Notes under the pieces: model-generated
Told to the model about the DNA's origin: nothing
The model's input: only the letters and a program-made list of their open reading frames with translations
Databases searched by the model: none
Assembly: GCA_964434535.1 (NCBI GenBank)
Contig: CAYSWA010000003.1
Span: forward strand, 20,985 to 84,984
Reading direction: 5' to 3'
Length of the DNA: 64,000 bases
From: an uncultured candidatus Brocadiaceae bacterium
GTDB taxonomy: Bacteria; Planctomycetota; Brocadiia; SM23-32
Made by a program: the position numbers and the translations under genes
Shown: positions 1,025 to 32,722 of the stretch, one piece after another
Position numbering within the stretch: the stretch's first letter is position 1
Layout: each line of letters begins with the position of its first letter

Positions 1025-1068
1025 GGGGCCGAAACCCGGGACTGTATCCCAATACGGCAGTCGGGAGC
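1025..1068. repeat. dispersed palindromic intergenic repeat, module 1 copy A (GGGGCCGAAACCCGGGACTGTATCCC...GCAGTCGGGAGC)
   Basis: Near-identical to the copies at 8991-9014 and 32645-32700, and related to the composite at 43036-43109. Intergenic. Confidence 0.6.
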
Positions 1069-1343
1069 AGGCAGCACGGCACGCCGCGCTGCGCGGTCAG
1101 GCCCCCCGCACCGACGATCAACGAACAACGAGCAACGGGACCGCGGACCGTCCCGGACTCTCGGCGGACAGAGCAGGGAAAGGACAAGCACCGCCCTCGC
1201 CGCGAGCACTCTGCCGTGGCAACGCGAAGTGTCCGGTCGGAGATGCTTCGCCCCGCCGTCGGCGGGACTCAGCATGACGAGGGGCGGGCGCCCACAGGCT
1301 GCCGCCCTGAACCGATCACCCGAGCCGATGGTATGATGGAAGC

Positions 1344-2951
1344 ATGCGCGGGGATGCGACGAGCAGGAGCGAACGGGCCGATGGCCCTGTTCGGGGCGAG
1401 CGCGGCAGGCGGCTGATGGTCACCGTCGCCGCGGGGCTGCTCGTGCTGATCGCCGTCGCGGCGATCGCCTGGCGGCTCTACGAGTGGCAGTATCAGCGCC
1501 GGGTCGAGGCCCGCCTGGGCCGGCTGCGCGCCGCCGGCAAGCCGACGAGCATCGAGGAGGTCCACGCCCGCCGCGAGCCGCTGCCGCCGGACGAGAACTC
1601 CGCGCTGATCCTGCTGAAGGCGTTGGAGCAGATGCGCGGCGTCGCGGCCCCGTACGCGGGGCCCACCATCGAGAAGCTCGTGGCCCACGTCGAGCTGGGC
1701 CGGCGCTGGTCGCCGGGGCTGAGGAAGGTCGTCGCACGCTACTTGGGCCCTTACGGCGCGATGATCGAGACCGTCCGGCACGCCGCCCGGCTGGAGCAGG
1801 GCGCTTATCGGCCGGAGGATCCGCTCTCGCCGCCGCGCGGCAGGCTCTCCGCCATGGCGGAGCTGTTCCACCTGGGCCAGATCTGCTGGCTTGCTTCGGC
1901 GGCGCGCTCGGAGGCCGCTGCCCCGCCGGTGGCCAAGGAGGGCGTCGAGGTCTGCGCGCGGCTGGCGGCCTCGGTCGGGGACGACCCCTTCCTGCGCCCC
2001 GTGCTGACGCGCCGCCGCCTGGACGCCACGTTCGTCAACGCCCTGGTGCGGCTGCTCGCCTTCGCGGAGCTGAGGCCGCAGGAGGTGGAGGAGCTGCGCG
2101 CCGAGGTGCAGCGGGAGCTCGACGTCATCGACCTGGGCGCGGCGCTCGCTGCGGAGCGCGTCCTCTGGCACGAGAAGCTCGCTCTGCGCCCCGCCCCCAG
2201 TCCCCCCGGCCCCGGCTGGTCGCCCTGGTGGGAGCGCCTGGCGCAACGCGGCGGCCGGCGCCTGGCCCCCTGGCGCCAGAGGGACCTGCTGGCGTGGCAC
2301 GACGCGCTGGACCGCATAGAGCCGCTGGCCGACCTGGCCCCACGGGAGCGGCTGCTGCGCCTGAAGCATCTGGAGGCCCAGGTCGCCGCCGGGACCCCGG
2401 CCGAGGGCGGCGCTTCTGCGGCGGTCTCCGCCCTGCTGAGCGACCTGCAGCGAGAGCTCTACGAGTGGACCCGGCTGCGGGTGGCGGACGCGGCGCTCGC
2501 CGTGGAGCTCTACCGGCTGCGGGAGGGCCGCTGGCCCGATTCCCTGGAGGATCTGGCGCCGGACCTGCTCGCGGAGGTGCCGCGCGACCCCTTCTCCGAT
2601 GGCCATCTTCGTTACCGTCGCAGGGCGTGGGGCGCCGTCGTCTACAGCGTGGGACCCGACGGGCGGGATGAGGGCGGGACCCATCGCCATGACGCCAACA
2701 AGGCCGCCGGGCCCGGCTCGCGCGTGGTGACGGGCTTCGACATCCCGTTCCGTCTGTTCCATCGCCAGCGGCGGTCGGCGCAGCCGGCCGATTTCGTGGA
2801 CGAGATCCTGCACGCCGCGGTGACCAGGCGCGAGCTGGAGATGGCCGGGCTGGACCGGGAGGAACTCACGCGGCTCGGGCTAACCGCGGCCGACCTGGCG
2901 CGCCTGGGCTTCGACGGCGCCCGCGAAGGCGCGGTCCGGCCGAACCCGTAG
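1344..2951 (+). CDS. hypothetical membrane-anchored protein with pseudopilin-like C-terminal motif
   Basis: N-terminal TM helix LMVTVAAGLLVLIAVAAIAW (alternative start 1416). Protein-like composition. C-terminal PRDPFSDGHLRYRRRAWGAVVYSVGPDGRDEGG resembles the GspG-type DPWGNxY...S.GPDG..GG motif. The overlapping antisense ORFs are R/G/P-rich junk. Confidence 0.5.
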   Translation: MRGDATSRSERADGPVRGERGRRLMVTVAAGLLVLIAVAAIAWRLYEWQYQRRVEARLGRLRAAGKPTSIEEVHARREPLPPDENSALILLKALEQMRGVAAPYAGPTIEKLVAHVELGRRWSPGLRKVVARYLGPYGAMIETVRHAARLEQGAYRPEDPLSPPRGRLSAMAELFHLGQICWLASAARSEAAAPPVAKEGVEVCARLAASVGDDPFLRPVLTRRRLDATFVNALVRLLAFAELRPQEVEELRAEVQRELDVIDLGAALAAERVLWHEKLALRPAPSPPGPGWSPWWERLAQRGGRRLAPWRQRDLLAWHDALDRIEPLADLAPRERLLRLKHLEAQVAAGTPAEGGASAAVSALLSDLQRELYEWTRLRVADAALAVELYRLREGRWPDSLEDLAPDLLAEVPRDPFSDGHLRYRRRAWGAVVYSVGPDGRDEGGTHRHDANKAAGPGSRVVTGFDIPFRLFHRQRRSAQPADFVDEILHAAVTRRELEMAGLDREELTRLGLTAADLARLGFDGAREGAVRPNP

Positions 2952-2957
2952 CGCCGC

Positions 2958-3025
2958 CGACGCTGGAGGGACGCGCTCTGGCCTGCCTTCCGAAGCCCGG
3001 TGGGGCGAAGGAGGGTCGCGTCCGG
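2958..3025. repeat. intergenic repeat, module 2 (two tandem copies of GGAGGGACGCGCTC-like motif)
   Basis: GCTGGAGGGACGCGCTCTGG and GCGAAGGAGGGTCGCGTCCGG. The same module occurs at 9033-9051 (rc) and 32693-32722. Sits between convergent genes. Confidence 0.5.
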
Positions 3026-3044
3026 CCGTTGCCGCGCGCCCCGC

Positions 3045-4208
3045 TCATATCCGCCGGCGGCGGGGTTCCAGGTCGATCTTGAGGGCGAGGAACTGGAGCA
3101 GGTCGCGCAGGCTGACGATGCCGACCGGGCGGCCGTCCTCGACGATGACGGCCCGGGGCTCCTCGCGCTGGCGCAGCTCGGCGAGCACGTCCACGGCGTC
3201 GGCTTCGGGGCCGATGGTGAGCACCTCGTCCATCTCCCGCATCAGTTCGCCGACGGTGGTCTCGGGCCATCGGCCGCGTTCGACGTCGCCGGGCGCACGC
3301 GCGCTCATCAGCCCCGCCATCCGCCCGTCCTCGTCCACCACGGGGTAGTAGGTGAAGCGGTGATGGAAGACGCAGTCCTCCACGAACTCGTCGACGGGCA
3401 TCTCGCGCGGCACCGTCACCAGGTCGGTGGTCATGAAGCGGGCGACCCGCTCCCCCTGGAGCTGCTGGCGGATGGTGACCATCTGGAGGCTGCCGGCGGC
3501 GGCCTGGCGCAGGAAGAAGCCGATGATGGCGAGCCAGACGCCGGTGATGACCACGTTGTTCAGCAGCAGGAAGACGCCGAGCATGATCAGCCCGAACCCG
3601 AAGAACGATCCGATGGCCACGGCCACGCGGGTGGCCGTCTGGAGGTCGTCGGTCACGCCCCAGAGGATGCTTCGCAGCACCCGCCCGCCGTCCAGCGGGA
3701 AGGCCGGCATGCTGTTGAAGCCGGCGAGCATGAAGTTCATGTAGCAGAGCAGGCCGAGCAGCGCGCGCACGGCGCCGTGCCACTCCGCATAGCGCGCGAC
3801 GAGCCAGAGGCCGAGGAAGGCGATGCCGATCAGCACGCTGGAGAGGGGCCCGACGACGGCCATGAAGAACTCCGTCCCCGCCGTCGGCGGCTCGTCCTCG
3901 AGCTGGCTCACCCCGCCGAAGATGAACAGCGTGATCCCGGAGACCGGCATGCCCGTGGCGCGCGCCACCAGCGAGTGGCAGAGCTCGTGGGCGATGAGCG
4001 AGGCGAACAGCCCGACCGTGCCGATCGCCGCCAGCCCCCAGCGAAGCTGCCAGCCCGCCTCCATGTCGAGCTTGCCCAGCCGCTGCGGGAAGTACCAGTT
4101 CGCCAGGCTGAACATGACCAGCGCGACCAGGAACAGCCAGGACAGGTTCGCCTTGATGGGCAGCCCGAACAGACGGAACAGCGTCTTGTCTCGTCCGATC
4201 AGCGGCAT
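3045..4208 (-). CDS. site-2 protease family (M50) zinc metalloprotease with C-terminal CBS pair
   Basis: HEXXH (HELCHS), LDGG motif, multiple TM helices, CBS-domain-like C-terminus. Start taken at MPLIGRDK. Confidence 0.85.
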   Translation of the reverse strand: MPLIGRDKTLFRLFGLPIKANLSWLFLVALVMFSLANWYFPQRLGKLDMEAGWQLRWGLAAIGTVGLFASLIAHELCHSLVARATGMPVSGITLFIFGGVSQLEDEPPTAGTEFFMAVVGPLSSVLIGIAFLGLWLVARYAEWHGAVRALLGLLCYMNFMLAGFNSMPAFPLDGGRVLRSILWGVTDDLQTATRVAVAIGSFFGFGLIMLGVFLLLNNVVITGVWLAIIGFFLRQAAAGSLQMVTIRQQLQGERVARFMTTDLVTVPREMPVDEFVEDCVFHHRFTYYPVVDEDGRMAGLMSARAPGDVERGRWPETTVGELMREMDEVLTIGPEADAVDVLAELRQREEPRAVIVEDGRPVGIVSLRDLLQFLALKIDLEPRRRRI

Positions 4209-4241
4209 GCGTCGCCCCCTTCCGTGGAATCTGCCCACTGC

Positions 4242-4247
4242 ATTATA
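4242..4247 (-). promoter_or_regulatory. -10 box TATAAT (minus strand) upstream of S2P protease gene
   Basis: rc gives CCGCTATAATGCAG about 30 nt upstream of the ATG. Same GCTATAAT box as at 16793 and 21137. Confidence 0.35.
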
Positions 4248-4283
4248 GCGGCTGCGGGAAGGGCATGCGGGGGACGGGCGGGG

Positions 4284-5717
4284 TCATCGCCGGCGCCCTT
4301 TCGCCGCCTTCAGGACCTTTGCCTCGGCCCGCTCGCGGTAGAAGGGGTCGAGCGGATAGCAGCCCGAGACCAGGCCCATGCGCGGCGCGCTGGTGCAGTC
4401 GCCGAAGGTGCGGCAGATGCGCCGCCGCTCGAGCGCCCGGCCGGCCAGCACGTCGGCCGGCAGCTCGGGGTAGGAGAGCATCATCCGGCCGAGGCCGGCA
4501 AAGTCCGCCATGCCCCTACGCACCGCCGCCTGGGCCACGTGCGGCAGCCACTCCTGCAGGTAGGTGTAGCCCGAGCCGACAATCGTCAGGGCGGGCAAGC
4601 GCGCCTTGAGCGCTGCGGTAAGCGCGACGTGCCGCGCCACGCCGAGGAGCGGGTCCTCCGGCGGCGGGTAGCCGTCGCTCGGCGGATAGAGGGCCGGGCG
4701 GGTAAGGTGCGGATTGTAGTAGGGGCTGCCGAGCGAGACGTTCACGAGGCGCACGCCGAGCTCCTCCAGCAGGCCGAGCAGGCGGAGCGGCTCCTCCAGC
4801 GCGGGCCGGAGCGGATCGTCCGGGTCCGCCCCGAAGGCGTAGGGATAGGGGACCGGGAAATCGACCGGCGCGCCCGTGCCGTCCGGGCCGGCGGCGAACG
4901 GCGGCGTGTCGAAGGCGCTCAGCCGCACGCCCACGCGCAGCCCCGGCACGCGCCGCCGGATGCCCTCCACGATCATGCGCAGGAACCGCGTGCGGTTCCC
5001 GAAGCTCCCGCCGAAGGGGCCGGGCCGCTCGTGCGCGGTGAGCAGCTCGTGCGCGAGGTAGCCGTGGCAGTGCTTGACGTCCACGAAGGCGAAGCCGGCT
5101 CCCGCGGCGAGGGCCGCCGCTTCGACGAAGCGCCCGGCGATGCCTTCGATCTCGGGGTCGGTCAGCACGGGCAGCTCGGGCGGCGCGCCGAACCGCGCGT
5201 CGAGCAGCGGGTGGCGGTAGGCGATGCGGGGCGCGGGGCGGCCGTCGGGCCGCGCGAAGCGGCCGGAGTGGGTGAGCTGGAGTCCGACGAGCAGGTCGTC
5301 CGTCCGCCCGCATGCCTCCCGGTGGGCCTCGACGAGCAGCTCGCGCAGCTCGGCGAGGGCCGGCAGGTTCGCCTCGCTGATGAGGAGCTGGCGGGGGTTC
5401 GCGCGGCCCTCGCGCATGACGGCGACGGCCTCGCCGCCCCAGACGAGCTTGGCGCCGCTGCGGCCGAAGTTGCGCCATCGGCGGCGCGTCAGCTCGCTCG
5501 GCCGCCCGTCCCGGGTGCCGTCCCAGCCCTCCATCGGTTGCACGCAGAAGCGGTTGCCGACGACGGGGCCGTCGGCGAGCTCCAGCGGCCGCGCGAGCGG
5601 CGCGGCGGGGCCGGACTCGATCTCGTCGTCGACCGGCAGTTCGAGGCCGAGGGAGGCCGCGTAGTCCCGCAGCTCCTCGGCGCTCTCGATGCTGGCCAGG
5701 CGGCGGCAGTCGGGCAT
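4284..5717 (-). CDS. NADH:flavin oxidoreductase, Old Yellow Enzyme family
   Basis: [19 protein letters not shown] and TIM-barrel OYE motifs. Confidence 0.85.
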
Positions 5718-5730
5718 GGCGGTAGCGGGG

Positions 5731-6516
5731 TCAGAGCCGGCACAGGTGGAAGCCGCCGTCCACGTCGATCACCTCGCCGGTCGAGAACGGGAGGCGGCCT
5801 TCGGCGATGGCGGCGACGGCCAGGGCGACCTCCCGCGGCTCGCCCCAGCGCGGGATCGGGGTCAGGCCGCCGGCGATCAGGGCCTCGTAACGCTCGGCGA
5901 CGGGCGCCGTCATGTCGGTGCGGATGAGGCCGGGGCGGACCTCGTAGACGTTGATCCCGTGGCCGGCCAGGCGCGCCGCGAAGAGCCGCGTCACCATGGC
6001 GAGGCCGGCCTTCGAGATGCAGTACTCGGGGCGGTCGGGGCTGGCGGCGTAGGCGCTGACGGAGCCGACGTTGACGATGTCCGCCCGCTCGATCGCCCCC
6101 GACTCGATCAGCCCGATCATGGCGCGGGCGACCCGCTGGGTGAGGAAGAAGGCGCCCTTCAGGTTCACGGCCACGATGCGGTCGAAGGACTCCTCGCTCG
6201 TCTCGAGCAGGTCGAGGCGCCGGGCGGGGGCGGCGCCGGCGTTGTTGACGAGCATGTCGATGCGGCCCAGCGCCCCCAGGGCCTCCCCGACCAGCCGCTC
6301 GCGGTCGGCGGCGCCGGCCACGTCGGCCCGGAGGGTCAGCGCCTCCCCGCCGGCCTGCTCCACCAGGCGGGCGGCCTCGGCGGCGGCCTCCTCGTCGGCC
6401 CGGTAGTTGACGGCCACCCGCCATCCCCGCTCGCCGAGCGCCACGGCGATCGCCCGCCCGATCCCCCGCCCGGCGCCCGTCACCAGCGCGACCCGCGCTT
6501 CGTCGTCAGCTCTCAT
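5731..6516 (-). CDS. SDR-family oxidoreductase (3-oxoacyl-ACP reductase-like)
   Basis: [12 protein letters not shown] Rossmann motif, NNAG, YxxxK (YCISKAG). Confidence 0.85.
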
Positions 6517-7603
6517 CGGCCAGCACCTTGCTCAGTGTCTCCAGGAAGAAGTAGTCGCCCCACATGACGCTCTCGTCCACGCCGAGCCCCTTGCGCTCGT
6601 GGTAGATGGCATGCTTGAGCACGCCCTCCCAGCCGGGCGTCTCGACGGCGAGGAACTGCGGCGTGCAGAGCGTGGCGAGGATGCGCAGCGCGTAGTCGCG
6701 GTATCGCCCGCCCGCTTCGCCGAGCATCTCCGAGAGCCTCCACATCCCGCCGGCGGCCACGGCGGCGGCGGACGACTCGTAGGGGAGGGCCGGATCCGGC
6801 TCGTCCCAGTCGTTCGGCGGCACCCCGTGGGCGCCAGTCCGCTCGATGTAGTAGTCGGCGCAGCGGCGGGCCGTCTCGAGCAGGCGCGCGTCGCCGCTGA
6901 AGGAGTAGGCCGTCCCGAACCCGTAGACCGCCCATGCCTGTCCGCGCGCCCAGCACGAGTCACCGCGCCAGCCCTGGCGGGTCTGCTGGCGCAGGAACTC
7001 GCCGGTGCGCAGCGCGAAGATGCCCTCGTGGGCCGTGCTCCCGTCCCCGCGCACCAGCCGGCGCCGGGTTGTCCGGCAATGCTGATCGGCGATGCGCCGG
7101 AGGGCCTCGTCGCCGGCCTGCTCGGCGGCGTAGAAGACGATCCCCACGTTCATCATGATGTCGATAAACAGGCTCTGCTCGCCGAGGAAGGAGCAGAGGT
7201 ATCCGCCCGGTTCCTGGAAGCGGAGGGCGAGGGTGCGGCCGGCCTCGACGACGACCCGGCGCGTGCGCTCCTCGCCGGTCAGGTCGTGCCAGCGCTTCCA
7301 GGTCGGCCAGAACAGGAAGCCGAGGTCGTGCACCGAGCGGTCGGCCTTGCGCGGCTCGATCAGGCGCGAGCAGCGCTCGGCCTGCCGGCGCCACCACTCC
7401 TCGCCCGTGCGCTCGTAGATGAGCCAGAGCTCGCCGCCGAGGAAGCCCTCGCACCAGTTGGTCCACCGCTCGCCCTCGTGGCGCCACCGGCCGCAACGGC
7501 TGTAGGTGGGGAAGAAGCCGGGGTGGCGCTCGACGAGCCGGCGCACCTGCCCGGCGGCGAACTCGAAGGCGCGCGCGGCCCGCTGCCTGAAGTCCTCGGC
7601 CAT
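6506..7603 (-). CDS. unsaturated glucuronyl/rhamnogalacturonyl hydrolase, GH88/GH105 family
   Basis: [20 protein letters not shown] and [10 protein letters not shown] motifs are typical of GH88/GH105. Confidence 0.8.
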
Positions 7604-7694
7604 CCTCTCCTCCCGCTGCGTTCCGGCCGGCCATCTTACGGGCGCCGCGAGAGGCCGTCAACGCGGGCTGGCGCCGACCCGTAGCACAGGCCCC

Positions 7695-8900
7695 CTACGG
7701 GCGCCAGATGGTGCCGTCGGGCAGGCGGCTCACCGTCCAGGTGGGGTTGGCCTCGTCGGCGGGGAACCTGGCGGCCAGCTCCTCGTCGAACTCGATCCCC
7801 AGCCCCGGCCGGTCGTTGGGGTAGGCGTAGCCTTCGCGCACCTCGGGCATGCCGGGGAAGAGGTCCCGCTCGGCCTGGCCGCGGCGGCTCCACTCCTGCA
7901 CGCCGAAGTTGTGGCAGGCCAGGTCCAGGTGCACGTTGGCCGCCATGCCGACCGGCGAGACGTCGCCCGGCCCGTGCCAGGCCGTGCGCACGCCGAACGC
8001 CGCGCACGTGTGCGCCAGCTTAAGCGCCGGCGTGATGCCGCCGATCTGGGAGACGTGCACGCGGATGAAGTCGATGAGCCGCTCGGCGATGATCGGCGTC
8101 ATCTCGCGCGGGTTGTTGAACAGCTCGCCCATGGCGATCGGCGTGGCGCAGACGGCGCGGATCTGCCGCAGCCAGTCCAGGTCCTCCGGCGCCACCACGT
8201 CCTCCAGGAAGAAGAGGCGGTAGGGCTCGAGCGCCCTGGCCAGATAGACGGCGTCGATCGGGGCGAGGCGCTCGTGCACGTCGTAGAGCAGCTCGACCTC
8301 GTCGCCGAGCTCGGCCCGCAGGTAGTCGAAGAAGTCGGGGATGCGGCGGACCTTCTCGCGGGGGTCGAAGTAGTCGCCGGGCGGGGCGCCTTCGGGACGC
8401 GCCATGTCCGCCCCTTCGGTCCCCGGGTAGCCGCCGAGCTGACAGCGCACGTAGCGGAATCCTTCGGCCATCAGCGCCTCGGCCCGTTCGGCCACCGCGC
8501 GGGGCTCGGGGCCGTCGGCATGGACGTAGACGGCCGCCGCCGGCCGGCACGCCCCGCCCCAGAGCCGGTAGCAGGGCATCCCGGCCAGCTTGCCCAGGAT
8601 GTCCCAGAGCGCCATGTCGACCCCGCTGATGGCGTTGTTGAGCACCGGCCCGTTGCGCCAGTAGCCGTTGACCATGGCGCACTGGTAGATGTCCTCGATG
8701 TCGCGCGGGTCGCGTCCGACGACGAAGGGGCCGACGTGGCCGTCGAGCGCCGCCTTCACCGCCAGGTGGCGCTGGGTGAACGTGGCGCAGCCGAGGCCGT
8801 AGAGCCCGTCCTGGTTGGTGAGCACGCGGACGACGACGAGGCGGGCGCGGCCGGGCTGGGTGACGGTTGTGCGGACCTCGGCGATCTTCAGCTCGCTCAT
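7695..8900 (-). CDS. enolase-superfamily D-mannonate/galactonate dehydratase (ManD/RspA-like)
   Basis: Mandelate racemase/muconate lactonizing enzyme fold motifs (KIAEVRTTVT..., LLYDVHERL, FFLED, HGPGDVSPV). Confidence 0.85.
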   Translation of the reverse strand: MSELKIAEVRTTVTQPGRARLVVVRVLTNQDGLYGLGCATFTQRHLAVKAALDGHVGPFVVGRDPRDIEDIYQCAMVNGYWRNGPVLNNAISGVDMALWDILGKLAGMPCYRLWGGACRPAAAVYVHADGPEPRAVAERAEALMAEGFRYVRCQLGGYPGTEGADMARPEGAPPGDYFDPREKVRRIPDFFDYLRAELGDEVELLYDVHERLAPIDAVYLARALEPYRLFFLEDVVAPEDLDWLRQIRAVCATPIAMGELFNNPREMTPIIAERLIDFIRVHVSQIGGITPALKLAHTCAAFGVRTAWHGPGDVSPVGMAANVHLDLACHNFGVQEWSRRGQAERDLFPGMPEVREGYAYPNDRPGLGIEFDEELAARFPADEANPTWTVSRLPDGTIWRP

Positions 8901-8990
8901 CGGCGGTCCTCGCGCGGGCGTGGTTGGGCGCAGACGCGGGCATTGTAGGGCCGCCCGCCGGCGCCGTCAACGCCTCTGCCGGCAGGGAAC

Positions 8991-9051
8991 GGAGCCGAAA
9001 CCCGGGACTTTCGGCGGCCAACCGGACGCGACGGGGCGCGTCCCTCCGAAG
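8991..9051. repeat. dispersed intergenic repeat copy B (module 1 forward + module 2 reverse)
   Basis: GGAGCCGAAACCCGGGACTTTCGG followed by GGGGCGCGTCCCTCCGAAG. In the divergent manD/mutY intergenic region. Confidence 0.6.
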
Positions 9052-9075
9052 CAAGATGCCGGCGCTACCCGCGCC

Positions 9076-9104
9076 TTGAGCGCGGCGGGGCGGCCGCGTA
9101 TCCT
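9076..9104 (+). promoter_or_regulatory. candidate promoter TTGAGC-N17-TATCCT for mutY
   Basis: Best hexamer spacing upstream of the ATG at 9112; weak matches. Confidence 0.25.
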
Positions 9105-9111
9105 GCCGCGA

Positions 9112-10188
9112 ATGGACCCCCGCACCGCCAGGCTCATCGGACGCCGCATCGTGCTCTGGTACGGGCGCAACGCGCGCGACCTGCCGTGGCGTGCCGACCC
9201 GACGCCCTACTCGGTCTGGGTCAGCGAGGTGATGCTCCAGCAGACCGTCGTGGCCACCGTCGGGCCCTACTTCCGGCGCTGGATGGAGCGGTTCCCGGAC
9301 GTGGCGACGCTGGCGGCCGGCCCGGAGCGGGCGGTGCTCGCCGCCTGGGAGGGGATGGGCTACTACCGGCGCGCGCGGCGCCTGCACGCCGCCGCCCGGC
9401 TGATCGTCGAGCGGCACGGCGGCCGGGTGCCCTGCGCCCGTGAGGACCTCCTCGCCCTGCCGGGCGTCGGGCCCTACATCGCCGCCGCCGTCCGCAGCAT
9501 CGCCTTCGGAGAGGACGAGGTGGCCCTCGACGCCAACGTCGTGCGCGTCTTCATGCGCCTGCTCGCCCTGGAGGGGACGGGCGCGGAGGCGGACGTGCGC
9601 CGCGAGGTGCGCGCGGCGGCACGGGCCGCCCTGCCCCCGGGCCGCTCGGCCGAGCTGAACCAGGGACTGATGGACTTCGGGAGCCTGATCTGCCGGGCCC
9701 GCGCGCCGCTCTGCCCCGGCTGCTTCCTGCGCGGCCGGTGCGCCGCCTTCGCCGGAGGGCGCCAGCACGAGATCCCCCGCCGCGACCCGCGCAGGCTGAA
9801 GAAGATCCGCACGGCCGTCGCCGTCATCCGCCGGGACGGGGAAGTCTTCCTCCAGCGTCGCCCGGACGACGGTCTATTCGCCGGGATGTGGGAGTTCCCC
9901 GGCGGCAAGCTGCGCGAGGGCGAGTCGCCGCGCGAGGGGCTGGCGCGGGAGTGCCGCGAGGAGCTCGGCGTCGCGGTGCGTCCGGGGCCGAAGCTGATCG
10001 AGCTGACGCACTACTACACGGCCTTCCACGTGCGCCTGCACGCATTGCTCTGCCCCGACCCCGGCGGCCTGCCGCTCGATGACGATCACTGCTGGGTGGC
10101 GGCCGACAAGCTGTCGGATTACCCCATGCCGTCGGCCAACCGGCGGGTGGTCGAGGCGCTGGCGGAGCGGCAGGCCGGGGGCCGCTAA
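9112..10188 (+). CDS. mutY: A/G-specific adenine DNA glycosylase MutY (HhH-GPD + 4Fe-4S + NUDIX-like domain)
   Basis: [34 protein letters not shown], CxxxxxxCPxC cluster, [13 protein letters not shown]-like C-terminus. Confidence 0.85.
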
Positions 10189-11641: not shown

Positions 11642-12825
11642 TCCACGGCGCGGGGCGGGGCCAGCAGGGCCTCGATGGCGCCCGTGGCGGCGCCGCGCCG
11701 GCCCAGGAAGCCGGTCAGCGCCTCCAGCCGCGGCAGCGCGTCGTCGAAGACCACGCAGTCGGAGGCGGCGCTCAGGCGCAGCTCCTCCTCCAGGCAGGCC
11801 GGCACAAAGGCCGTCTCGCCCCGCGCCAGCTCCATCTCAGCGTCGCCGGCCCGGAGCCCGACCTCGCCCTTCAGGCAGTGGAGCACGCGGTATCCGCCGT
11901 AGAGCGGCGCGAGCCCGCCCTCGCGCCCGGCGGCCAGGCGCACGCGGCTCTTGACGAAGTACGGCGTCGCCACCAGCACCTCGACCGCGTGCCCCTCGGC
12001 GACGTCCACCTGCACTGACGGCACGAACCGGAGCCCGGCGCCGGGATCGACCAGCCGGAAGCCGAGCTCGGGATACTCGCCGGGCCGCCGTCCGAAGTCG
12101 TAGATGCGCACCGTCGGGTTGGCCTGGAGGTCCTGCTCGATCTGTATCTCGCCTTCGGCGGCGGCGGCGACCGTCTCGTCGTCGGGGTGGACCTGGACGC
12201 TGAGCAGGTTGTCCTGGACGCCGAGGATCTTGCTGAGCGTGGGCAGGCGGCTCTCGCCGTAGCCCTGCTGGATCTCGTCGATGATGAGCCGACTCCCGGG
12301 GCCGACGGCGAACATGGTGTGCAGCGTGCCGGCCGGGGCGAGGAAGACCTCGCCGCCCTCCAGCGGCTCGACCACGCCGAAGAGCCGGCGCACCTCCTGC
12401 GGCCACCCTTCGACGCGCGGCGCGAGGCCCTCGCTGCGGATCAGCTCCTCCAGCCGGGTGGCGTCCTCCCGGGTGCGCGGGCCCGCCACCACGCCGGTGC
12501 GCCCCTGCGCTGCGCGGATGCACCATGCCTCCGTCTTGCCCCGGTGCACGTGCTCGGCCAGGTGCTGGAGGACCGGCTCGCCGAGCAGGGCGGCGAGCGC
12601 CTCTTCGTCTCCGGCCGCCTCATCGAGCAGCTCGGCGAGCGTGCGGCCGAGGGCCGGTTCGGCGACGGCGTTCGAGTAGTTGCCCGGCCCGGTCTGGGCC
12701 GAGGCGAGCCAGAACTCGCCCACGCCGACCCGGATGCCGGCCAGCGCGTCGGCGCCCTCGTGCACCAGGCCCCAGGGCTTCAAGACCACGGCGGGGGCCA
12801 GCTTCCACAGCGCGGGTTCGGTCAT
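11638..12825 (-). CDS. class I mannose-6-phosphate isomerase (cupin)
   Basis: KPWGLVHEG, GEFWLASAQTG, LSVQVHPDD. Confidence 0.75.
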   Translation of the reverse strand: MTEPALWKLAPAVVLKPWGLVHEGADALAGIRVGVGEFWLASAQTGPGNYSNAVAEPALGRTLAELLDEAAGDEEALAALLGEPVLQHLAEHVHRGKTEAWCIRAAQGRTGVVAGPRTREDATRLEELIRSEGLAPRVEGWPQEVRRLFGVVEPLEGGEVFLAPAGTLHTMFAVGPGSRLIIDEIQQGYGESRLPTLSKILGVQDNLLSVQVHPDDETVAAAAEGEIQIEQDLQANPTVRIYDFGRRPGEYPELGFRLVDPGAGLRFVPSVQVDVAEGHAVEVLVATPYFVKSRVRLAAGREGGLAPLYGGYRVLHCLKGEVGLRAGDAEMELARGETAFVPACLEEELRLSAASDCVVFDDALPRLEALTGFLGRRGAATGAIEALLAPPRAVE

Positions 12826-21145: not shown

Positions 21146-21404
21146 GAACGGTTCGCCGGGCCGATTTCAAGCCCCTGCGGCGGGCAGCAGGGCCACAAGA
21201 TGCCATCCTGAGCCCCCCGCCGGCCTGTCCCGGACAGGCACGTCGGCGCAGAAAGATCCCTCGCGGTTGACAGCCGAGCCGCTCGGGATGACACGAGGGG
21301 GGCAGTCGTCCGCGGGCTGCCGCCCCGGCAAGTCCCGGGCGCCATGATCGTGCCGTCGGCCGACAGCCGAATGGCCCTGGGTGGTCGGGCCCGGCGGGGC
21401 GTCG

Positions 21405-26507: not shown

Positions 26508-26602
26508 GATTGCGGCGGGCGTGATGTAGCATTGTGGCTTGCGGGCGGCGCCGTGGCCGCCGCCGCACCTCATCCCTTCCCCAGGGCGATCCGGGCGAGC
26601 AC

Positions 26603-27787
26603 ATGCCGGCTGAGCACTCCGCAGGCGTCGTCCAGACCAGGACCTGGCGGTTCGCCGAGCCGCCGGGCGAGCTGGCCCTGCGCAGCGGGGTGAAGCTCGG
26701 CCCGATCGAGGTGGCCTACGAGACCTACGGCGAGCTGAGCCCGCAGCGGGACAACGCCATCTACATCTGCCACGCCCTGAGCGGCGACGCCCACGTGGCC
26801 GGCGTCCACTGCCCGGACGATGCGAAGCCCGGCTGGTGGGACACGATGGTCGGCCCGGGGAAGGGGATCGACACCGAGCGCTACTTCGTGGTCTGCGCCA
26901 ACTGCATCGGCGGCTGCAAGGGCAGCACCGGCCCCTCGTCGATCAACCCGCGCACGGGCGAGCCCTACGGGCTCGACTTCCCCATGGTGACGATCAGCGA
27001 CATGGTGAAGGTCCAGCACGCCCTGCTGACGGAGCACCTGGGGGTGGAGCGGGTGCTCGCGGTGGTCGGCGGCTCGATGGGGGGGATGCAGGTGCTCCAG
27101 TGGGCGATCGACTACCCGGAGATGGTCGCCTCGGCCATCCCCATCGCCAGCGCCAGCCGGCTGGAGGCGCAGAGCATCGCCTTCGACGAGGTGGGCCGGC
27201 AGGCCATCTACAGCGACCCGAACTGGCGGGAGGGCAGCTACTACGGCGGCGCGCCGCCGAACCGCGGCCTCGCCGTGGCGCGGATGATCGGCCACATCAC
27301 CTACCTGAGCAGCCACTCGATGCGCGACAAGTTCGGGCGCGGCCTCCAGGACCGCGACGAGGTCGGCTACGACTTCGGCCCGGCCGACTTCCAGGTCGAG
27401 AGCTACCTGCGCTACAAGGGCGACAGCTTCGTGGAGCGCTTCGACGCCAACTCCTACCTCTACATCACCAAGGCGATGGACTACTTCGACCTGGCGGCCG
27501 ACCACGGCTCGCTCATCGAGGCGTTCCGCGGCGTCAAGAGCCGCTTCCTGGTCATCTCCTACAGCGGGGACTGGCTCTTCCCCACCGAGCAGTCCAAGGA
27601 GATCGTGCGCGCCCTCCAGGCCAACGGCGTGGTCACCACGTTCCTGGAGCTTCAGAGCGAATACGGGCACGACGCCTTCCTGCTGGAGGACGAGCAGCTC
27701 AGCCAGATCCTGGCCGGCTTCCTGCGCAACGCCCTCGCCGAGGAGCGGCGCCGCGCCGCCCCCGACCCAATCGGCGCGCGCCCTTAA
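26603..27787 (+). CDS. metX: homoserine O-acetyltransferase
   Basis: alpha/beta hydrolase with GGSMGGMQVLQW nucleophile elbow and conserved MetX N-terminus (IEVAYETYGEL). Confidence 0.9.
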   Translation: MPAEHSAGVVQTRTWRFAEPPGELALRSGVKLGPIEVAYETYGELSPQRDNAIYICHALSGDAHVAGVHCPDDAKPGWWDTMVGPGKGIDTERYFVVCANCIGGCKGSTGPSSINPRTGEPYGLDFPMVTISDMVKVQHALLTEHLGVERVLAVVGGSMGGMQVLQWAIDYPEMVASAIPIASASRLEAQSIAFDEVGRQAIYSDPNWREGSYYGGAPPNRGLAVARMIGHITYLSSHSMRDKFGRGLQDRDEVGYDFGPADFQVESYLRYKGDSFVERFDANSYLYITKAMDYFDLAADHGSLIEAFRGVKSRFLVISYSGDWLFPTEQSKEIVRALQANGVVTTFLELQSEYGHDAFLLEDEQLSQILAGFLRNALAEERRRAAPDPIGARP

Positions 27788-27812
27788 AGACCCCTTGCCC
27801 CCGGGGAGAGGC

Positions 27813-28958
27813 ATGAACGACACCGACCCGCTGACGCCCTACGGCAACCGGCCGATGGTCACGCCCATCGTGGCCGCCGTCAACTACGAGTACCTCTCCT
27901 TCGAGGTGCTGCGCCAGATCACCGACGGTGAGATCGACGGCTACACCTACCATCGCGACGACAACCCCACCGTGCGCGCCGTCGAGAAGCAGGTCGCCGC
28001 CCTGGAGGGCGCCGTCGATTGCGTCATCGCCACCACCGGGATGGCCGCCATTACCATGATCTTCCTCACCTACCTGAACAAGGGCGACCATCTGATCACC
28101 TTCCACGACGTCTACGGGGCCAACTATAAGGTCTCGCTCATCCTGGAGCGCTTCGGCGTCGAGGTCACCTGGCTCGACGCCGACCGGGGCGACCTGGTGG
28201 CCGAGGCCGTGCGCGACAACACGGCGATGATCTTCTGCGAGACCCCGAGCAACCCGCTGTGCAAGACCGTCGAGATCGCCATGCTCCGCCGCGAGGCCGA
28301 CCGCGCCGGGGCCCGCCTGGTGGTGGACAACACCTTCGCCACACCCTATCACCAGCTCCCGCTGACGCTCGGGGCCGACCTGGTCGTCCACAGCGCCACC
28401 AAGGCCCTCGGCGGGCACAACGACCTGATGGCCGGGGCCATCGCCTGCTCCACGCGCGAGTACTACGACGAGCTCTGGTTCACCCGCCAGGCCATCGGCA
28501 CCACGCTGGACCCCTACTCGGCCGCCCGCCTGGAGAGGGGGCTGAAGACCTTTGCCCTGCGCGCCGAGAAGATGGCGGCGAACGCGCAGGCGATGGCCGA
28601 GTTCCTGGAAGCCCACCCCCGCGTGCCGCGCGTGCGCTACCCGGGGCTGCCCTCCGACCCGGGCCACGAGGCCGCCGCGCGGCAGATGAAGGACGGGTTC
28701 GGCGGCATGCTCGCCTTCGACGTGGGCCAGACGGAGGAGGACGCCAGGCGCTTCGTCGAAAGGCTCAAGGTCATGTATCACGCCGTCAGCCTGGGGGCGA
28801 CGGAGACGCTGGTCTGCGTGCCCTACCTGAGCACCATGCTGTACCTGCCGCAGCAGCGGCGGACCACCTTCGGCGTGCGGCGCAACACGGTGCGCCTCTC
28901 GGCGGGAATCGAACCGATCGGGGACCTGATCGCCGACCTCGAGCAGGCCCTCGCCTGA
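27813..28958 (+). CDS. PLP-dependent Cys/Met metabolism enzyme (cystathionine gamma-synthase/beta-lyase-like)
   Basis: HSATKALGGHNDLMAG (PLP lysine), YTYHRDDNPT, cystathionine-family fold. Confidence 0.8.
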   Translation: MNDTDPLTPYGNRPMVTPIVAAVNYEYLSFEVLRQITDGEIDGYTYHRDDNPTVRAVEKQVAALEGAVDCVIATTGMAAITMIFLTYLNKGDHLITFHDVYGANYKVSLILERFGVEVTWLDADRGDLVAEAVRDNTAMIFCETPSNPLCKTVEIAMLRREADRAGARLVVDNTFATPYHQLPLTLGADLVVHSATKALGGHNDLMAGAIACSTREYYDELWFTRQAIGTTLDPYSAARLERGLKTFALRAEKMAANAQAMAEFLEAHPRVPRVRYPGLPSDPGHEAAARQMKDGFGGMLAFDVGQTEEDARRFVERLKVMYHAVSLGATETLVCVPYLSTMLYLPQQRRTTFGVRRNTVRLSAGIEPIGDLIADLEQALA

Positions 28959-28991
28959 ACGGGGCGGGCCACTCAAAGCGGGATCGCTGCC

Positions 28992-29594
28992 ATGCCGGCG
29001 CGGCTCGACTACCGGATGATCGAGGACCACGTGGAGCCCGGGGCCGAGGTGCTGGACCTGGGCTGCGGCGACGGTGAGCTCCTGCACGAGCTGATCGCGC
29101 AGAAGGGCTGCCGGGGCTGCGGGGTCGACGTGGACCTGGCCGCTGTGCAGAGGTGCATCGCCCGGGGCGTGCCGGTCTACCACGGCGACATGCAGGAGGG
29201 GCTCGCCATGTTCGCCGACGGGCGGTTCGACTGCGTGATACTGAGCCAGACTCTCCAGCAGACGGTCTCGCCGGCCCGCGTGATCCGCGAGATGCTGCGG
29301 GTGGGCCGGCGGGCGGTGATCAGCTTCCCCAACTTCGGGCACTGGCGCGTGCGGCTCCAGCTCTTGCTGAAGGGCCGCATGCCCGTCACACGGGTGCTGC
29401 CCTACAAGTGGTACGACACGCCCAACATCCACCTGCTCACCGTCAAGGACTTCCTCAGGCTCTGCGAGGAGCTGGGGCTGCGGATCGTCGACAGGATCTA
29501 CCTGACCCCGGGCGACCGCCGCGTGCCGGCGCCGCTGGCCAACATGCTGGCCGGCGTCGCCATCTTCGTCGTCGAATCGCGCAGCAGCGCCTGA
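28992..29594 (+). CDS. metW: methionine biosynthesis protein MetW
   Basis: VLDLGCGDGELL SAM-binding motif plus conserved MetW C-terminus (ISFPNFGHWRVRLQLLLKGRMPVT). Confidence 0.85.
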   Translation: MPARLDYRMIEDHVEPGAEVLDLGCGDGELLHELIAQKGCRGCGVDVDLAAVQRCIARGVPVYHGDMQEGLAMFADGRFDCVILSQTLQQTVSPARVIREMLRVGRRAVISFPNFGHWRVRLQLLLKGRMPVTRVLPYKWYDTPNIHLLTVKDFLRLCEELGLRIVDRIYLTPGDRRVPAPLANMLAGVAIFVVESRSSA

Positions 29595-29612
29595 CCCCGC
29601 AGGAGGGGGCAG

Positions 29613-30284
29613 ATGGCCGCCGAGAAGAAGCCGCCCCGTGGCAAGATGGCGCGCAAGCGCGCGTGCGAGATACTCGACCGCCTCGAACAGGAGCACCCCG
29701 ACGCGCGCGTCTACCTCGACTACGAGACGCCGCTCCAGTTGCTCCTCGCTACCATCCTCGCCGCCCAGTGCACCGACGAGAAGGTCAACGAGATCACCCC
29801 CCGGCTCTTCGAGCGTTACCCGACGGCCGAAGAGCTGGCCAAAGCCGACCGGGAGGGGCTGGAGGCGCTGTTGCGGCCGACCGGTTTCTTCCGCCAGAAG
29901 GCCCGGAGCGTGCAGGAGGCCTGCCGCGTCATCGCCGAGGAGCACGGCGGCGAGGTGCCCGCCGACCGCGAGGCGCTCACCGCCATATCCGGCGTCGGCC
30001 GCAAGACCGCCAACATCGTGCTGATCGAAGCCTTCGGCCAGGATGCCATCGCCGTCGACACGCACGTCAAGCGCCTCGCCACGCGGCTGGGCATGACCGC
30101 CTCGAAGACGGTGGACGCGATGGAGAAGGACCTCTGCGCCCTGATCCCCGAGGAGCGCTGGGGCCGGGCGACGCTCCTGCTCGGCACGCACGGGCGGCGC
30201 GTCTGCGCGGCGAAGAAGCCCGACCACGAGGGCTGCGCCCTCAACGAGCTCTGCGCGTTCTACCGCGACATGCAGTCCCGCTAA
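29613..30284 (+). CDS. nth: endonuclease III
   Basis: HhH-GPD (LTAISGVGRKTANIVL, VDTHVKR) and C-terminal 4Fe-4S cysteines CxxxxxxCxxC. Confidence 0.9.
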   Translation: MAAEKKPPRGKMARKRACEILDRLEQEHPDARVYLDYETPLQLLLATILAAQCTDEKVNEITPRLFERYPTAEELAKADREGLEALLRPTGFFRQKARSVQEACRVIAEEHGGEVPADREALTAISGVGRKTANIVLIEAFGQDAIAVDTHVKRLATRLGMTASKTVDAMEKDLCALIPEERWGRATLLLGTHGRRVCAAKKPDHEGCALNELCAFYRDMQSR

Positions 30285-30308
30285 GCCGGCCCGAGCCGAG
30301 CCGCCGCC

Positions 30309-32597
30309 ATGGCTGAGACGACCCAGGAGCCCGCCGCCGAGCGCCGCCGCATCACCGTGCGGGGCCGCGTGCAGGGCGTCGGCTTCCGCCCCACGCTCTA
30401 TCGCGAGCTGGTGCGGCGCGGCTGCGCCGGCAGCATCCGCAACACCCCCGAAGGGGTCGCGCTCGAGGTCGAGGCGCCGCCCGACGTGCTGGACGAGGTC
30501 GTGCGCGAGTTCCCCCGGCTCGTGCCCGAGCGGGCGCGCGTGGACGAGCTGATCGTCGAGCAGGTCGAGCCCCGGGGCGAGCGGGGCTTCCGCATCGAAC
30601 GCAGCGACGCGGACGGGCGAAGCCTGCTGCCGATCCCGCCCGACCTGGCCCTCTGCGGCGAATGCGCCGCCGAGCTGGACCGGCCCGGCTGCCGGCGCGA
30701 GGGCTACCCCTTCAACACCTGCACCGACTGCGGGCCGCGCTTCACCATCGCCCGGCGCGTGCCGTTCGATCGGGAGACGAACGCCATGGCGGCCTTCCCT
30801 CCGTGCGAGGACTGCGCCCGCGAGTACGCCGAGCCGGCCGAGCGCCGCTTCCACGCGCAGACCGTCTCCTGCCCCGCCTGCGGCCCCTCGCTCGCCTTCC
30901 TCACCCCCCAGGGCGAAGAGGTGGACGAGCCGCTCCGGACCGCCCGGCGCATGCTGCGCGAGGGGCGGATCCTGGCCGTCAAGGGCATCGGCGGCTTCCA
31001 CCTCGCCTGCGACGCCACGCGCCCCGCGCCCGTCGCCCTGCTGCGCGAGCGGAAGCGACGGCCCGCCAGGCCGTTTGCGATCATGGCGGTCGATATCGAG
31101 GCGTGCCGGCGGCTCGCCGAGGTGAGCGCCGTCGAAGAGGAGCTGCTGACCTCGCCGCAGGCGCCGATCGTCCTGCTGCGCAGGCGGCCCGGTTGCCCCG
31201 TCGCCGAGGGCGTCGCGCCGGGCCTGGCGCACCTCGGCGTCATGCTGCCCTACACGCCGCTGCACCGGCTGCTCCTCGCCGGCGAGATGCCCGTCGCGCT
31301 GGTCATGACGAGCTGCAACCGGCGCGAGGAGCCGATCGCCGTCAGCCACGAGCAGGTGCTCGGGGAGCTGACCGATCTCGTGGACGGCGTGCTGACCCAC
31401 GACCGGGAGATTGTGAACCGCTGCGACGACTCGCTGGTGGCGGCCTTCGACGGGCTGCCCCTGCCGATGCGGCGCTCGCGGGGCTACGTGCCCGAACCCC
31501 TCATCCTTGAGCGCCCCGGGCCGCCCGTGCTCGCCACCGGCGGGATGATGAAGAACGCGTTCGCGCTGACCAGCGGCCGGCGCGTCTTCCTCTCCCAGCA
31601 CATCGGCGACGTCTCGGACGCCGACAACGCCGCCTACTTCGCGCGCTCCGTGCGGGAGTTCTCGCGGCTGCTGCGCGTGGAGCCGGAGGTCCTCGCCTGC
31701 GACATGCACCCGGACTACCCCACGACGGCCTTCGCCCGTGAGATGGCCGAGCGACGCGGGCTGCCGCTCCTCCAGGTGCAGCAGCACCACGCCCATGTCG
31801 TCTCGTGCCTCGCCGAGAACGGCCGCGAGGGGCCGGCCATCGGCGTGAGCTGGGACGGGGCGGGCTACGGCGAGGACGGCGCCGTCTGGGGCGGCGAGTT
31901 CATGGTCGCCGACCGGCGCGGCTACCGGCGGCGCTATCACCTGGCCTACGTGCCGATGCCCGGCGGCGAGCAGGCCGTCCTCAACCCCGTGCGCATGGCC
32001 GCCTCGCACCTGGCCTGCGCGCTCGGTCCGCAGGAGGCGCTGCGGCGGCTCGGCCCCGCGATGCGGGAAGGCGAGTGCGATCTCGCCCTGCGGGTCATGG
32101 GGCGGGAAGCGTTCTCCCCGCCCACCTCCAGCGCCGGGCGGCTCTTCGACGCCGTCGCCGCCCTGCTCGGCGTGCGCAGGCGCGCCACCTACGACGGCCA
32201 GCCGGCCGCCGAGCTCGAGGCGCACTGCGCGCCGGAGGCCGAAGGCGCCTACCCCGTTGCCTTCGAGGGCGACGAGATATCGGTAGCGCCGACCTGGGCG
32301 GCGATATGCGGGGACCTGGATAGGGGCGAGGAGCCCGGCGCCGTCGCCATGCGGTTCCACCGCGCGATGGCCGGGGTCATCCTGGAGGGCTGCCGTCGGC
32401 TGCGGGAGGAGGAGGGCCTCGGCGTCGTCGCCCTCTCCGGCGGCGTGATGCAGAACCGCACGCTGCTGGCCCTGGCCGTGCCGGCGCTGCGGGCGGAAGG
32501 GTTCGAGGTGCTGCTTCAGAGCCGCGTGCCGCCGAACGACGGGGGCCTCTGCCTGGGCCAGGCCGCCTGCGCCCTGGCGCGCCTGGCCGCGCCGTAG
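30309..32597 (+). CDS. hypF: [NiFe]-hydrogenase maturation carbamoyltransferase HypF
   Basis: Acylphosphatase (VRGRVQGVGFR), two CxxC zinc-finger pairs, YrdC-like (ILAVKGIGGFHLACDA) and Kae1-like C-terminal domains. 762 aa. Confidence 0.9.
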   Translation: MAETTQEPAAERRRITVRGRVQGVGFRPTLYRELVRRGCAGSIRNTPEGVALEVEAPPDVLDEVVREFPRLVPERARVDELIVEQVEPRGERGFRIERSDADGRSLLPIPPDLALCGECAAELDRPGCRREGYPFNTCTDCGPRFTIARRVPFDRETNAMAAFPPCEDCAREYAEPAERRFHAQTVSCPACGPSLAFLTPQGEEVDEPLRTARRMLREGRILAVKGIGGFHLACDATRPAPVALLRERKRRPARPFAIMAVDIEACRRLAEVSAVEEELLTSPQAPIVLLRRRPGCPVAEGVAPGLAHLGVMLPYTPLHRLLLAGEMPVALVMTSCNRREEPIAVSHEQVLGELTDLVDGVLTHDREIVNRCDDSLVAAFDGLPLPMRRSRGYVPEPLILERPGPPVLATGGMMKNAFALTSGRRVFLSQHIGDVSDADNAAYFARSVREFSRLLRVEPEVLACDMHPDYPTTAFAREMAERRGLPLLQVQQHHAHVVSCLAENGREGPAIGVSWDGAGYGEDGAVWGGEFMVADRRGYRRRYHLAYVPMPGGEQAVLNPVRMAASHLACALGPQEALRRLGPAMREGECDLALRVMGREAFSPPTSSAGRLFDAVAALLGVRRRATYDGQPAAELEAHCAPEAEGAYPVAFEGDEISVAPTWAAICGDLDRGEEPGAVAMRFHRAMAGVILEGCRRLREEEGLGVVALSGGVMQNRTLLALAVPALRAEGFEVLLQSRVPPNDGGLCLGQAACALARLAAP

Positions 32598-32643
32598 CGG
32601 CGCACGGCGCTACCGGACGGCGCATCCGACTGGCCATTGTCCG

Positions 32644-32722
32644 CTGAAACTCCGGGACAGTCCCCTTCGGGATACAGTCCCGGTTTTCGGCTCCGACGCC
32701 GAAGGTGGAGGGACGCGCTCCG
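32644..32722. repeat. dispersed intergenic repeat copy C (module 1 reverse + module 2 forward)
   Basis: GAAACTCCGGGACAGTCCCCTTCGGGATACAGTCCCGGTTTTCGGCTCC followed by CGAAGGTGGAGGGACGCGCTCCGG. Between hypF and hypC. Confidence 0.6.

Follow-up and report, generated by a model that had tools for sequence, protein, structure and literature searches.

Bacterial miniature inverted-repeat transposable elements (MITEs), such as the Correia elements of Neisseria, and the enterobacterial repetitive intergenic consensus sequences or intergenic repeat units (ERIC/IRU) are non-coding elements of about 50–150 nt with imperfect inverted ends and with long and short internal variants. Their insertion sites are close to promoters and to the ends of genes, and a stop codon can come from the element itself. 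Published repetitive extragenic palindromic (REP) sequences are stem-loops of 20–40 bp that carry a GTAG or CGTC tag and often occur as head-to-head pairs, sometimes with DNA between the partners. They are found mostly between unidirectional or convergent genes, and untagged REP-like families are also known (PMC3733652). Bacterial interspersed mosaic elements (BIMEs) have a regular spacing and defined linker motifs and bind IHF or gyrase (PMC2817692). Here, we analyze two short palindromic repeats, modules M1 and M2, in a 64-kb stretch of DNA from an uncultured Brocadiaceae bacterium of the Planctomycetota (contig CAYSWA010000003.1), hereafter called the window, and compare them with these systems.

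M1 and M2 are probably two small families of insertion elements, lineage-specific, non-coding, and imperfectly palindromic, that resemble REP sequences and MITEs and combine into BIME-like mosaics. An initial annotation of the window had offered either a lineage-specific REP/MITE-like family or shared operator sites as the explanation of these modules. The first proposal is retained here at a scope of three loci per module, and it draws on empty sites in relatives, long and short variants of both modules, and unrelated palindromes at the same spots in other lineages; the second is disfavored. A search of the literature turned up no planctomycete family with the M1 or M2 motifs. The window has a GC content of 72%, and the best matches of its genes, at about 70% identity, are proteins from metagenome-assembled genomes of Planctomycetota or 'Ca. 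Brocadiia'. Matches of 100% to its genes come only from one NCBI contig and from Logan contigs of SRR7048218. The repeats were followed through the window and through these Logan contigs, which extend 2.4 kb beyond its right end and 0.5 kb beyond its left end.

Repeat modules M1 and M2

The modules were traced by an all-against-all comparison of the intergenic regions of the window, in which genes were called from third-position GC together with Pfam scans. M1 is present in three copies, named A, B, and C, and M2 in three copies, named X, B, and C; the two modules lie side by side at loci B and C. The M1 motif GCCGAAACCCGGGACT, with up to two mismatches, is matched at 1028(+), 8994(+), and 32676(−), which is three matches against 0.07 expected, a number reached in none of 100 shuffles, and an M1 23-mer is matched twice against 0.00 expected. 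The 12-mer core of M2, GGAGGGACGCGC, occurs exactly at 2965(+), 9036–9047(−), and 32707(+), against 0.16 copies expected, and as many copies were again found in none of 100 shuffles. Local alignment of whole intergenic regions, compared with shuffled sequence, gave pairwise z-scores of 10.6 for X and C, 6.8 for A and C, 4.9 for B and C, and 3.7 for A and B. The copies of M1 and M2 are true repeats, and the presence of both modules, as initially described, is borne out. Loci A, X, and B are reproduced exactly in independently assembled Logan contigs of SRR7048218 (locus B is identical in contig L049) and are therefore not assembly artefacts. No new copy of M1 or M2 was found in the Logan extensions on either side of the window.

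M1 is a single element of about 58 nt whose left end differs from its right end, and both ends are common to A, B, and C. Its two-ended nature follows from locus C, the second half of which (GGACTGTCCCGGAGTTTCAGCGGACA) recurs at 1145–1170, about 94 nt past the recurrence of the first half at 1024–1050. The left arms have the consensus CGGRGCCGAAAMCCGGGACTGTATCCC and have CGGRGCCGAAAMCCGGGACTGT in common. The consensus of the right arms is GGACyGTCCCGGAsTyTCrGCGGACA; their reverse complements have TGTCCGCYGARAsTCCGGGACrGT in common, beginning with TGTCCGC and carrying one extra base before CCGGGAC. The two arms are imperfect inverted repeats of each other that differ systematically, and the inverted ends, imperfect and 15–18 nt long (GCCGAAAnCCGGGAC and GTCCCGGAnTTTCrGC), are of the MITE type. 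Left-type and right-type arms are both present in A and C and are truncated in B. Since the types are identical in A and C, the M1 copies descend from one asymmetric element and not from independently placed half-sites. The copies differ through indels at the centre, which is 5 nt long in C and 94 nt long in A and is collapsed in B, and all of them extend beyond the limits first drawn for the module.

Copy C (32638–32695, minus strand) is the compact full element of 58 nt and reads CGGAGCCGAAAACCGGGACTGTATCCC-GAAGG-GGACTGTCCCGGAGTTTCAGCGGACA on its own strand. It starts 41 nt past the hypF stop codon (32595–32597), with the hypC ATG at 32820, and as single-stranded DNA it folds into a hairpin of −14.3 kcal/mol (z = −3.4), equalled in stability by none of 200 shuffles. 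Copy A (1024–1170, plus strand) is the long form, in which a left arm at 1024–1050 (CGGGGCCGAAACCCGGGACTGTATCCC), 93% identical to 32695–32669 over 27 nt, is separated by a unique 94-nt centre from a right arm at 1145–1170 (GGACCGTCCCGGACTCTCGGCGGACA), 85% identical to 32663–32638 over 26 nt. It is located between two divergent genes, a small one that is lipoprotein-like (566–841, minus strand) and one for a 511-aa protein of unassigned function (1416–2951, plus strand). Copy B (8990–9019, plus strand; CGGAGCCGAAACCCGGGACTTTCGGCGGCC) is the collapsed form, in which the left arm is fused to the tail of the right arm; the loss of internal DNA from the CCGG(G)AC direct repeat of one arm to that of the other could produce such a fusion. 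It lies between the divergent enolase-superfamily (MR_MLE) gene and mutY, whose ATG is at 9112. A palindrome at 21223–21239 (GCCTGTCCCGGACAGGC) and a 10-mer at 21330–21339 (AAGTCCCGGG) that equals part of M1 copy B are found in the intergenic DNA upstream of the argininosuccinate lyase gene; these might represent a decayed M1 copy or have arisen by chance.

M2 likewise has long and short forms, and its arms, GGAGGGACGCG and CGCGTCC, are inverted ends of the same MITE-like type. The long form, copy X (2952–3027, plus strand), carries GGAGGGACGCGC (2965–2976) and a diverged second unit, GGAGGGTCGCGTCCGG (3010–3025), around a 38-nt centre. It folds as a long hairpin (z = −1.7) and fills the 93-nt gap between the convergent genes for the 511-aa protein and an M50/CBS peptidase. 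The preceding GTAGCGCCG (2948–2956) contains the TAG stop codon of the upstream gene. The Logan contig that covers locus A, L038, ends inside this long hairpin at about 2992, where the repeat or hairpin may have broken the assembly. In the short form, copy B (9022–9068), the minus strand reads GTAGCGCCG...GGAGGGACGCGC-CCC-GTCGCGTCCGG, with 7-bp stems GGACGCG/CGCGTCC and a 6-nt loop; the arms GGAGGGACGCGC and GTCGCGTCCGG are 3 nt apart in this copy (9022–9051) and 38 nt apart in X. Copy C (32694–32755, plus strand) aligns to 2952–3007 over about 56–62 nt, with a local alignment score of 48 against a null mean of 18.6 (z = 10.6). It contains the exact 12-mer at 32707–32718 and reaches into the −35 box of the hypC promoter.

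The order of the modules differs between the two composite loci, M1 following M2 in B when read on the minus strand and preceding it in C, so that the modules are independent units in a mosaic. The varying orders and orientations that were initially described hold for the best matches, although the orientation calls are partly ambiguous because both modules are nearly palindromic.

Promoters and equivalent sites in relatives

Near-consensus sigma70-like promoters are about tenfold enriched in the window, with 11 found in 60 kb against about 1.1 expected in shuffled sequence; examples are those at 940–968(−), 8942–8970(−), 32745–32773(+), 38416–38443(+), and 47079–47107(−). Such promoters keep their position in relatives, and two of them serve as flanking anchors for the comparison of sites. 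The hypC promoter, GTGACA-17-TATACT (32745–32773, plus strand), lies outside the repeat and is kept in the related contigs L036, L039, and L040, and the leftward promoter TTGACG-17-TACAAT (8942–8970, minus strand) is kept in L041 and L043. The rightward mutY promoter, TTGAGC-17-TATCCT, was read by eye and is below the threshold of the scan. Its −10 box ends 7 nt before the ATG, and mutY thus appears to be nearly leaderless. All three M1 copies stand in the same relative orientation 18, 49, or 55 nt upstream of a −35 box, at 968(−), 8970(−), and 32745(+); copy A begins 55 nt upstream of the −35 box of the 968–940(−) promoter. A shared orientation in all three copies has a chance probability of 1 in 4, with three cases only. 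Copy B sits between back-to-back promoters, with −35 boxes at 8970(−) and, as read by eye, at 9076(+) (TTGAGC), and is therefore probably not transcribed. A scan for intrinsic terminators found none at any of the loci.

Syntenic loci of relatives, at about 70% protein identity, were fetched through their HypF and MutY homologues. At the hypF–hypC junction in L040, the promoter GTGAAA-17-TATACT overlaps the hypF stop codon and the gap is 60 nt long; in the window, the hypC promoter lies 147 nt past the hypF stop codon, and the extra DNA consists of M1 and M2. L036 and L039 keep the hypC promoter and have other inserts at the junction, an inverted repeat with a 161-aa open reading frame in L036 and a PAS gene in L039. 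The inverted repeat of L036, located downstream of hypF at 12399–12522 (GTCATTCCGA...TCGGAATGAC), is unrelated to the modules.

For the mutY site, the promoter hexamers were used as anchors in the comparison of locus B with L041, MAFFT having misplaced the gap. In L041, a leftward promoter TTGAAC-17-TACAAT stands back to back with the mutY promoter, with the −35 boxes 6 nt apart and 44 nt from −35 box to ATG. The corresponding distances in the window are 105 nt between the −35 boxes and 142 nt to the ATG, and the space is filled by M1 and M2. In L043, the mutY promoters are separated by an unrelated inverted-repeat element of about 230 nt (9731–9940), built of CACGGAGACACGGAGGACACGGAGAAC units. 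The relatives also carry an extra short-chain dehydrogenase/reductase (SDR) gene between the MR_MLE gene and mutY (window 7695–8900; L041 7417–9893; L043 7624–9670), and in L041 the MR_MLE gene is split by a DDE transposase. The lineage of the window is without the SDR gene near mutY, yet it has the same promoter. The 511-aa gene that flanks loci A and X has homologues of at most 37% identity in differing neighborhoods, and the comparison of orthologous sites is confined to the other loci.

Neither M1 nor M2, nor the separate hairpin D described below, was found in the relative loci, which amount to 162 kb of DNA, about 130 kb of it non-redundant. The exact 19-mer GGRGCCGAAAMCCGGGACT has 11 matches in the GTDB representatives (185,579 genomes) and 24 in JGI metagenomes, none of them multi-copy. 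These matches are single, come from unrelated taxa, and show no similarity past the pattern, and they are accordingly taken as chance matches. In IMG/VR, M1 has one chance match and the D arm has none. Sites empty of the elements, with the flanking promoters or the gene end kept, are seen in L040 (hypF–hypC, and ADH–def for element D) and in L041 (upstream of mutY). This comparison shows the modules as lineage-specific additions to an otherwise conserved architecture of promoters and gene ends, and the same gaps as colonized by different palindromic elements in different lineages. These two patterns are the behavior of selfish repeats of the REP/MITE type and of BIME-like mosaics.

Element D and other inserted or repeated DNA in the window

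The annotation had counted a composite near 43 kb as a related form of M1 and had arrived at a family of at least five loci. This composite is element D (43037–43108), a separate 72-nt hairpin in which two copies of GAAAATGGGGACAGTTCCCATTTTC, inverted with respect to each other, pair in a perfect stem of 24 bp. Its RNA folds at −56.5/−59.7 kcal/mol (z = −8.3/−9.3) and its DNA folds with z = −8.9. Local alignment shows no significant resemblance between D and any of A, B, C, and X (z ≤ 1.8), and D has in common with the modules only the 8-mer GGGACAGT and the loose pattern GAAA-N-GGGAC-N-TCCC; the word GGGACWGT, with eight occurrences against 3.35 expected, is suggestive only. A kinship of D with M1 is not supported by these alignment statistics, and the family therefore consists of four loci and not five. 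In the explanation favored here, D is a third hairpin element, not related to M1 or M2 but of a broadly similar nature, which inserted right where a gene ends.

The gene in question is Fe-ADH, and D lies between it and def-fmt, 73 nt upstream of the def ATG (42964, minus strand). The right arm of D encodes the final 10 residues and the stop codon of Fe-ADH. All other copies are indeed intergenic, as initially stated, and D is the exception. The window ADH aligns with that of L040 up to two residues before the L040 stop codon, where the latter ends ...RQILSQVCW*, and then continues for 11 further residues, the last 10 of which come from D. The ADH–def spacer of L040 holds no inverted repeat.

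Further inserted or repeated DNA was observed elsewhere in the window and fits a repeat-tolerant genome. At 38416–41005, a restriction-modification pair of the PstI/BsuBI type, comprising a 516-aa Eco57I/N6_Mtase-like methylase and a 328-aa BsuBI_PstI endonuclease, follows the near-consensus promoter TTGACA-16-TATAGT and has a GC content of 65% against 72% for the window. Its flanking comF-like and DUF116 genes are adjacent in L036 and L040, which identifies the pair as an inserted island. At 51904–52474, a 172-aa 23S_rRNA_IVP (four-helix-bundle) gene is flanked by inverted repeats of 34–37 nt (CCGCTCGTCCTCGTCGTCGTCC... and ...GGACGAGGACGACGACGAGCGG) and lies between two pmbA/tldD paralogues, which in L039 are 93 nt apart with no such gene between them. 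A solo copy of the flanking repeat occurs at 50383–50399, upstream of the first pmbA/tldD paralogue. A third repeat family consists of a 55-nt exact direct repeat (47117–47171 and 48698–48752) and an 86% inverted partial copy (48821–48857). It holds three 10-nt-periodic CGCrGAT units (GGAACCGCAGATGAACGCGGATAGACGCGGATTGCGG), and its first copy adjoins the −35 box of the 47107(−) promoter; the family could be a response-regulator-type site or another mosaic repeat. In addition, a CT-rich repeat (GCCGTCACTTCATCCTTCATCCTTCC...) forms an inverted pair, 86% identical over 37 nt, in two intergenic regions (47287–47322 and 50343–50379).

Explanations of the modules and comparison with known systems

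If M1 and M2 are REP/MITE-like insertion elements, as we consider probable, they would have settled where an insertion is harmless: in the space separating divergent promoters that stand back to back, in the stretch from a stop codon to the following promoter, and in gaps where genes converge. Their spread would have relied on a transposase acting in trans from another place in the genome, the candidates being a DDE-type enzyme that works on the inverted ends or an IS200/RAYT-like enzyme (RAYT, REP-associated tyrosine transposase) that works on the hairpins. Slippage at short repeats within the element, direct or inverted, may have given rise to short forms such as B. If the copies have a role today, it would be secondary; for example, those after hypF and in the convergent gap could serve as a terminator without a U-tract or as a 3′ hairpin, and others could space divergent promoters. 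The stem-loops of the modules are in keeping with this explanation: M1-B and M2-B, 30 nt each, have a 7-bp stem, and the 58-nt M1-C forms the hairpin described above.

Several observations weigh against this explanation. High copy number is the defining property of REP sequences and MITEs, and each module has three loci in the window and about 3 kb of Logan sequence. No transposase or RAYT gene was found among the window genes scanned with Pfam. The M1 ends have no target-site duplication when the flanks of A, B, and C are compared by eye (GAGGAG/GAGCAG at A only). No stem has a GTAG or CGTC tag next to it, the left ends of M1 being preceded by GGAG (A), GGAA (B), and CGTC (C). The 9-mer GTAGCGSCG is not enriched (five matches against 2.6 expected), and GTAGCGCCG precedes the M2 core by 8–12 nt in only two of the three copies (X and B). 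Membership in the GTAG/CGTC-tagged REP sequences is ruled out by the flanks together with the unenriched 9-mer. With regard to placement, two of the three M1 copies (A and B) lie between divergent genes, X is in a convergent gap, and C is in a unidirectional gap. All three M1 copies stand upstream of a strong −35 box in one orientation, and a regulatory module would show the same. Finally, the relatives are distant (about 70% amino acid identity), and for this reason the empty sites show a lineage-specific gain but neither date it nor prove transposition.

A more specific variant of the insertion-element explanation is rather unlikely but worth stating. In it, M1 and M2 would be an undescribed, untagged class of Planctomycetota hairpins that inserts just upstream of −35 boxes or between back-to-back promoters ('safe-haven' targeting), and whose copies would then act as spacers, insulators, or binding sites that retune promoters. 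The pattern GAAA-N(1-2)-GGGAC-N(3-4)-(G)TCCC in M1 and D would represent the recognition hairpin of one enzyme.

The position of M1 relative to promoters also lies behind the proposal that a DNA-binding protein particular to the lineage uses the modules as operators or upstream activating sites and would thereby control the lipoprotein gene, the sugar-acid operon together with mutY, and hypCDE. Besides the uniform placement of M1, copy B lies exactly between two divergent −35 boxes, M2 copy C adjoins the hypC −35 box, and the arms are 85–100% identical between copies. However, the spacing of the M1 arms, which ranges from an overlap in B to about 19 nt in C and about 94 nt in A, is unlike that of a dimeric site, and the distance to the −35 box varies as well. 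No promoter accompanies M2 copy X in its convergent gap, the same promoters are present in relatives without modules, the adjacent genes have no obvious common function, and eight further strong promoter-like sites of the window have no M1. Shared operator sites, as the annotation had put it, are disfavored by the variable arm spacing and −35 distance, the convergent M2 copy, and the promoters kept in relatives without modules, and we regard them as unlikely.

It is quite improbable that the elements act mainly as RNA, as 3′-end hairpins, terminators without a U-tract, mRNA stabilizers, or small RNAs. Copy C, close behind the hypF stop codon, folds well, X fills its convergent gap with a long hairpin, the ADH gene ends in the 24-bp hairpin D, and published REP sequences are thought to act in this way (PMC3733652). 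Against this stand the position of B between divergent −35 boxes and of A upstream of the sole strong promoter nearby, both probably untranscribed, and the finding that A, B, and X fold no better than shuffled sequence, with only C and D significantly better. Intrinsic terminators as defined by the tool occur at no locus, three copies give no usable covariation, and Rfam, where the annotation had suggested looking, yields no match at gathering thresholds and, at E ≤ 1, only sub-threshold and spurious mir-373 hairpin matches on D. For A and B, a role at the RNA level alone is improbable; C, X, and D may have one as a secondary function.

The modules might also be scars rather than mobile units, leftover inverted-repeat ends of larger cassettes that were lost by recombination between the ends, which we rate as equally doubtful. 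Larger inserts do occur at the same junctions in relatives (the 161-aa open reading frame with its inverted repeat, the PAS gene, and the 230-nt inverted-repeat element), the 23S_rRNA_IVP gene of the window has both flanking inverted repeats and a solo repeat copy, and M1 and M2 occur as short forms that consist of arms only. However, no cassette with M1 or M2 ends was seen in the window or in the relative loci. Near-identical arms at three unlinked loci need a common repeated source, and the scar explanation therefore overlaps with that of mobile elements. Chance similarity, suggested by the high GC content of the window, in which short GC-rich words often recur and some sub-motifs are unenriched by themselves, is ruled out by the shuffle controls and is further opposed by the alignment z-scores.

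Should the REP/MITE-like explanation be correct, the modules would add another small palindromic repeat family, in an uncultured planctomycete lineage whose closest sequenced relatives are at about 70% protein identity. It would explain why some intergenic gaps exceed those of the relatives, and it would mark insertion hot spots that were filled differently in each lineage while the promoters stayed. Fe-ADH would be a gene whose C-terminus and stop codon derive from an inserted hairpin. The practical value is modest; repeats of this sort may interrupt assemblies and be of use as strain markers. No new mechanism would be opened unless the placement close to promoters turns out to be targeted or to have a function.

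The Correia-type MITEs and the ERIC/IRU sequences resemble the modules in size, inverted ends, indel variants, placement, and the supply of a stop codon. The modules differ from Correia-type MITEs in having no target-site duplication, in the centre of copy A, which has no counterpart, and in that a parent insertion sequence with matching ends was not found in the window; moreover, M1 and M2 hold no outward promoter, the nearby promoters being ancestral. With REP sequences and their paired hairpin form, the REP doublets forming hairpins (REPINs), they have in common that they are short, imperfect, GC-rich extragenic palindromes whose inverted pairs fold into a larger hairpin, that DNA is sometimes inserted between the partners, that the families are species-specific, and that some copies overlap gene ends (PMC3733652, PMC2817692, PMC3116915). 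Unlike REP sequences and REPINs, M1 and M2 have no GTAG or CGTC tag beside the stem, three loci, and no RAYT gene seen in the window. The M1 ends are distinct on the left and right and transposon-like, in contrast to two identical REP units, and two of the three M1 copies are in divergent gaps, whereas REP sequences favor unidirectional or convergent ones. As in the BIMEs of E. coli (PMC2817692), M1 and M2 are adjacent in varying order and orientation at B and C, a likeness that extends to two composite loci only. Given the missing tag, the MITE-like ends, and the lack of a target-site duplication, the modules are classified as untagged and REP/MITE-like and not as a RAYT-REP family. They are placed, as lineage-specific families, within the broad kind of small palindromic intergenic repeats.

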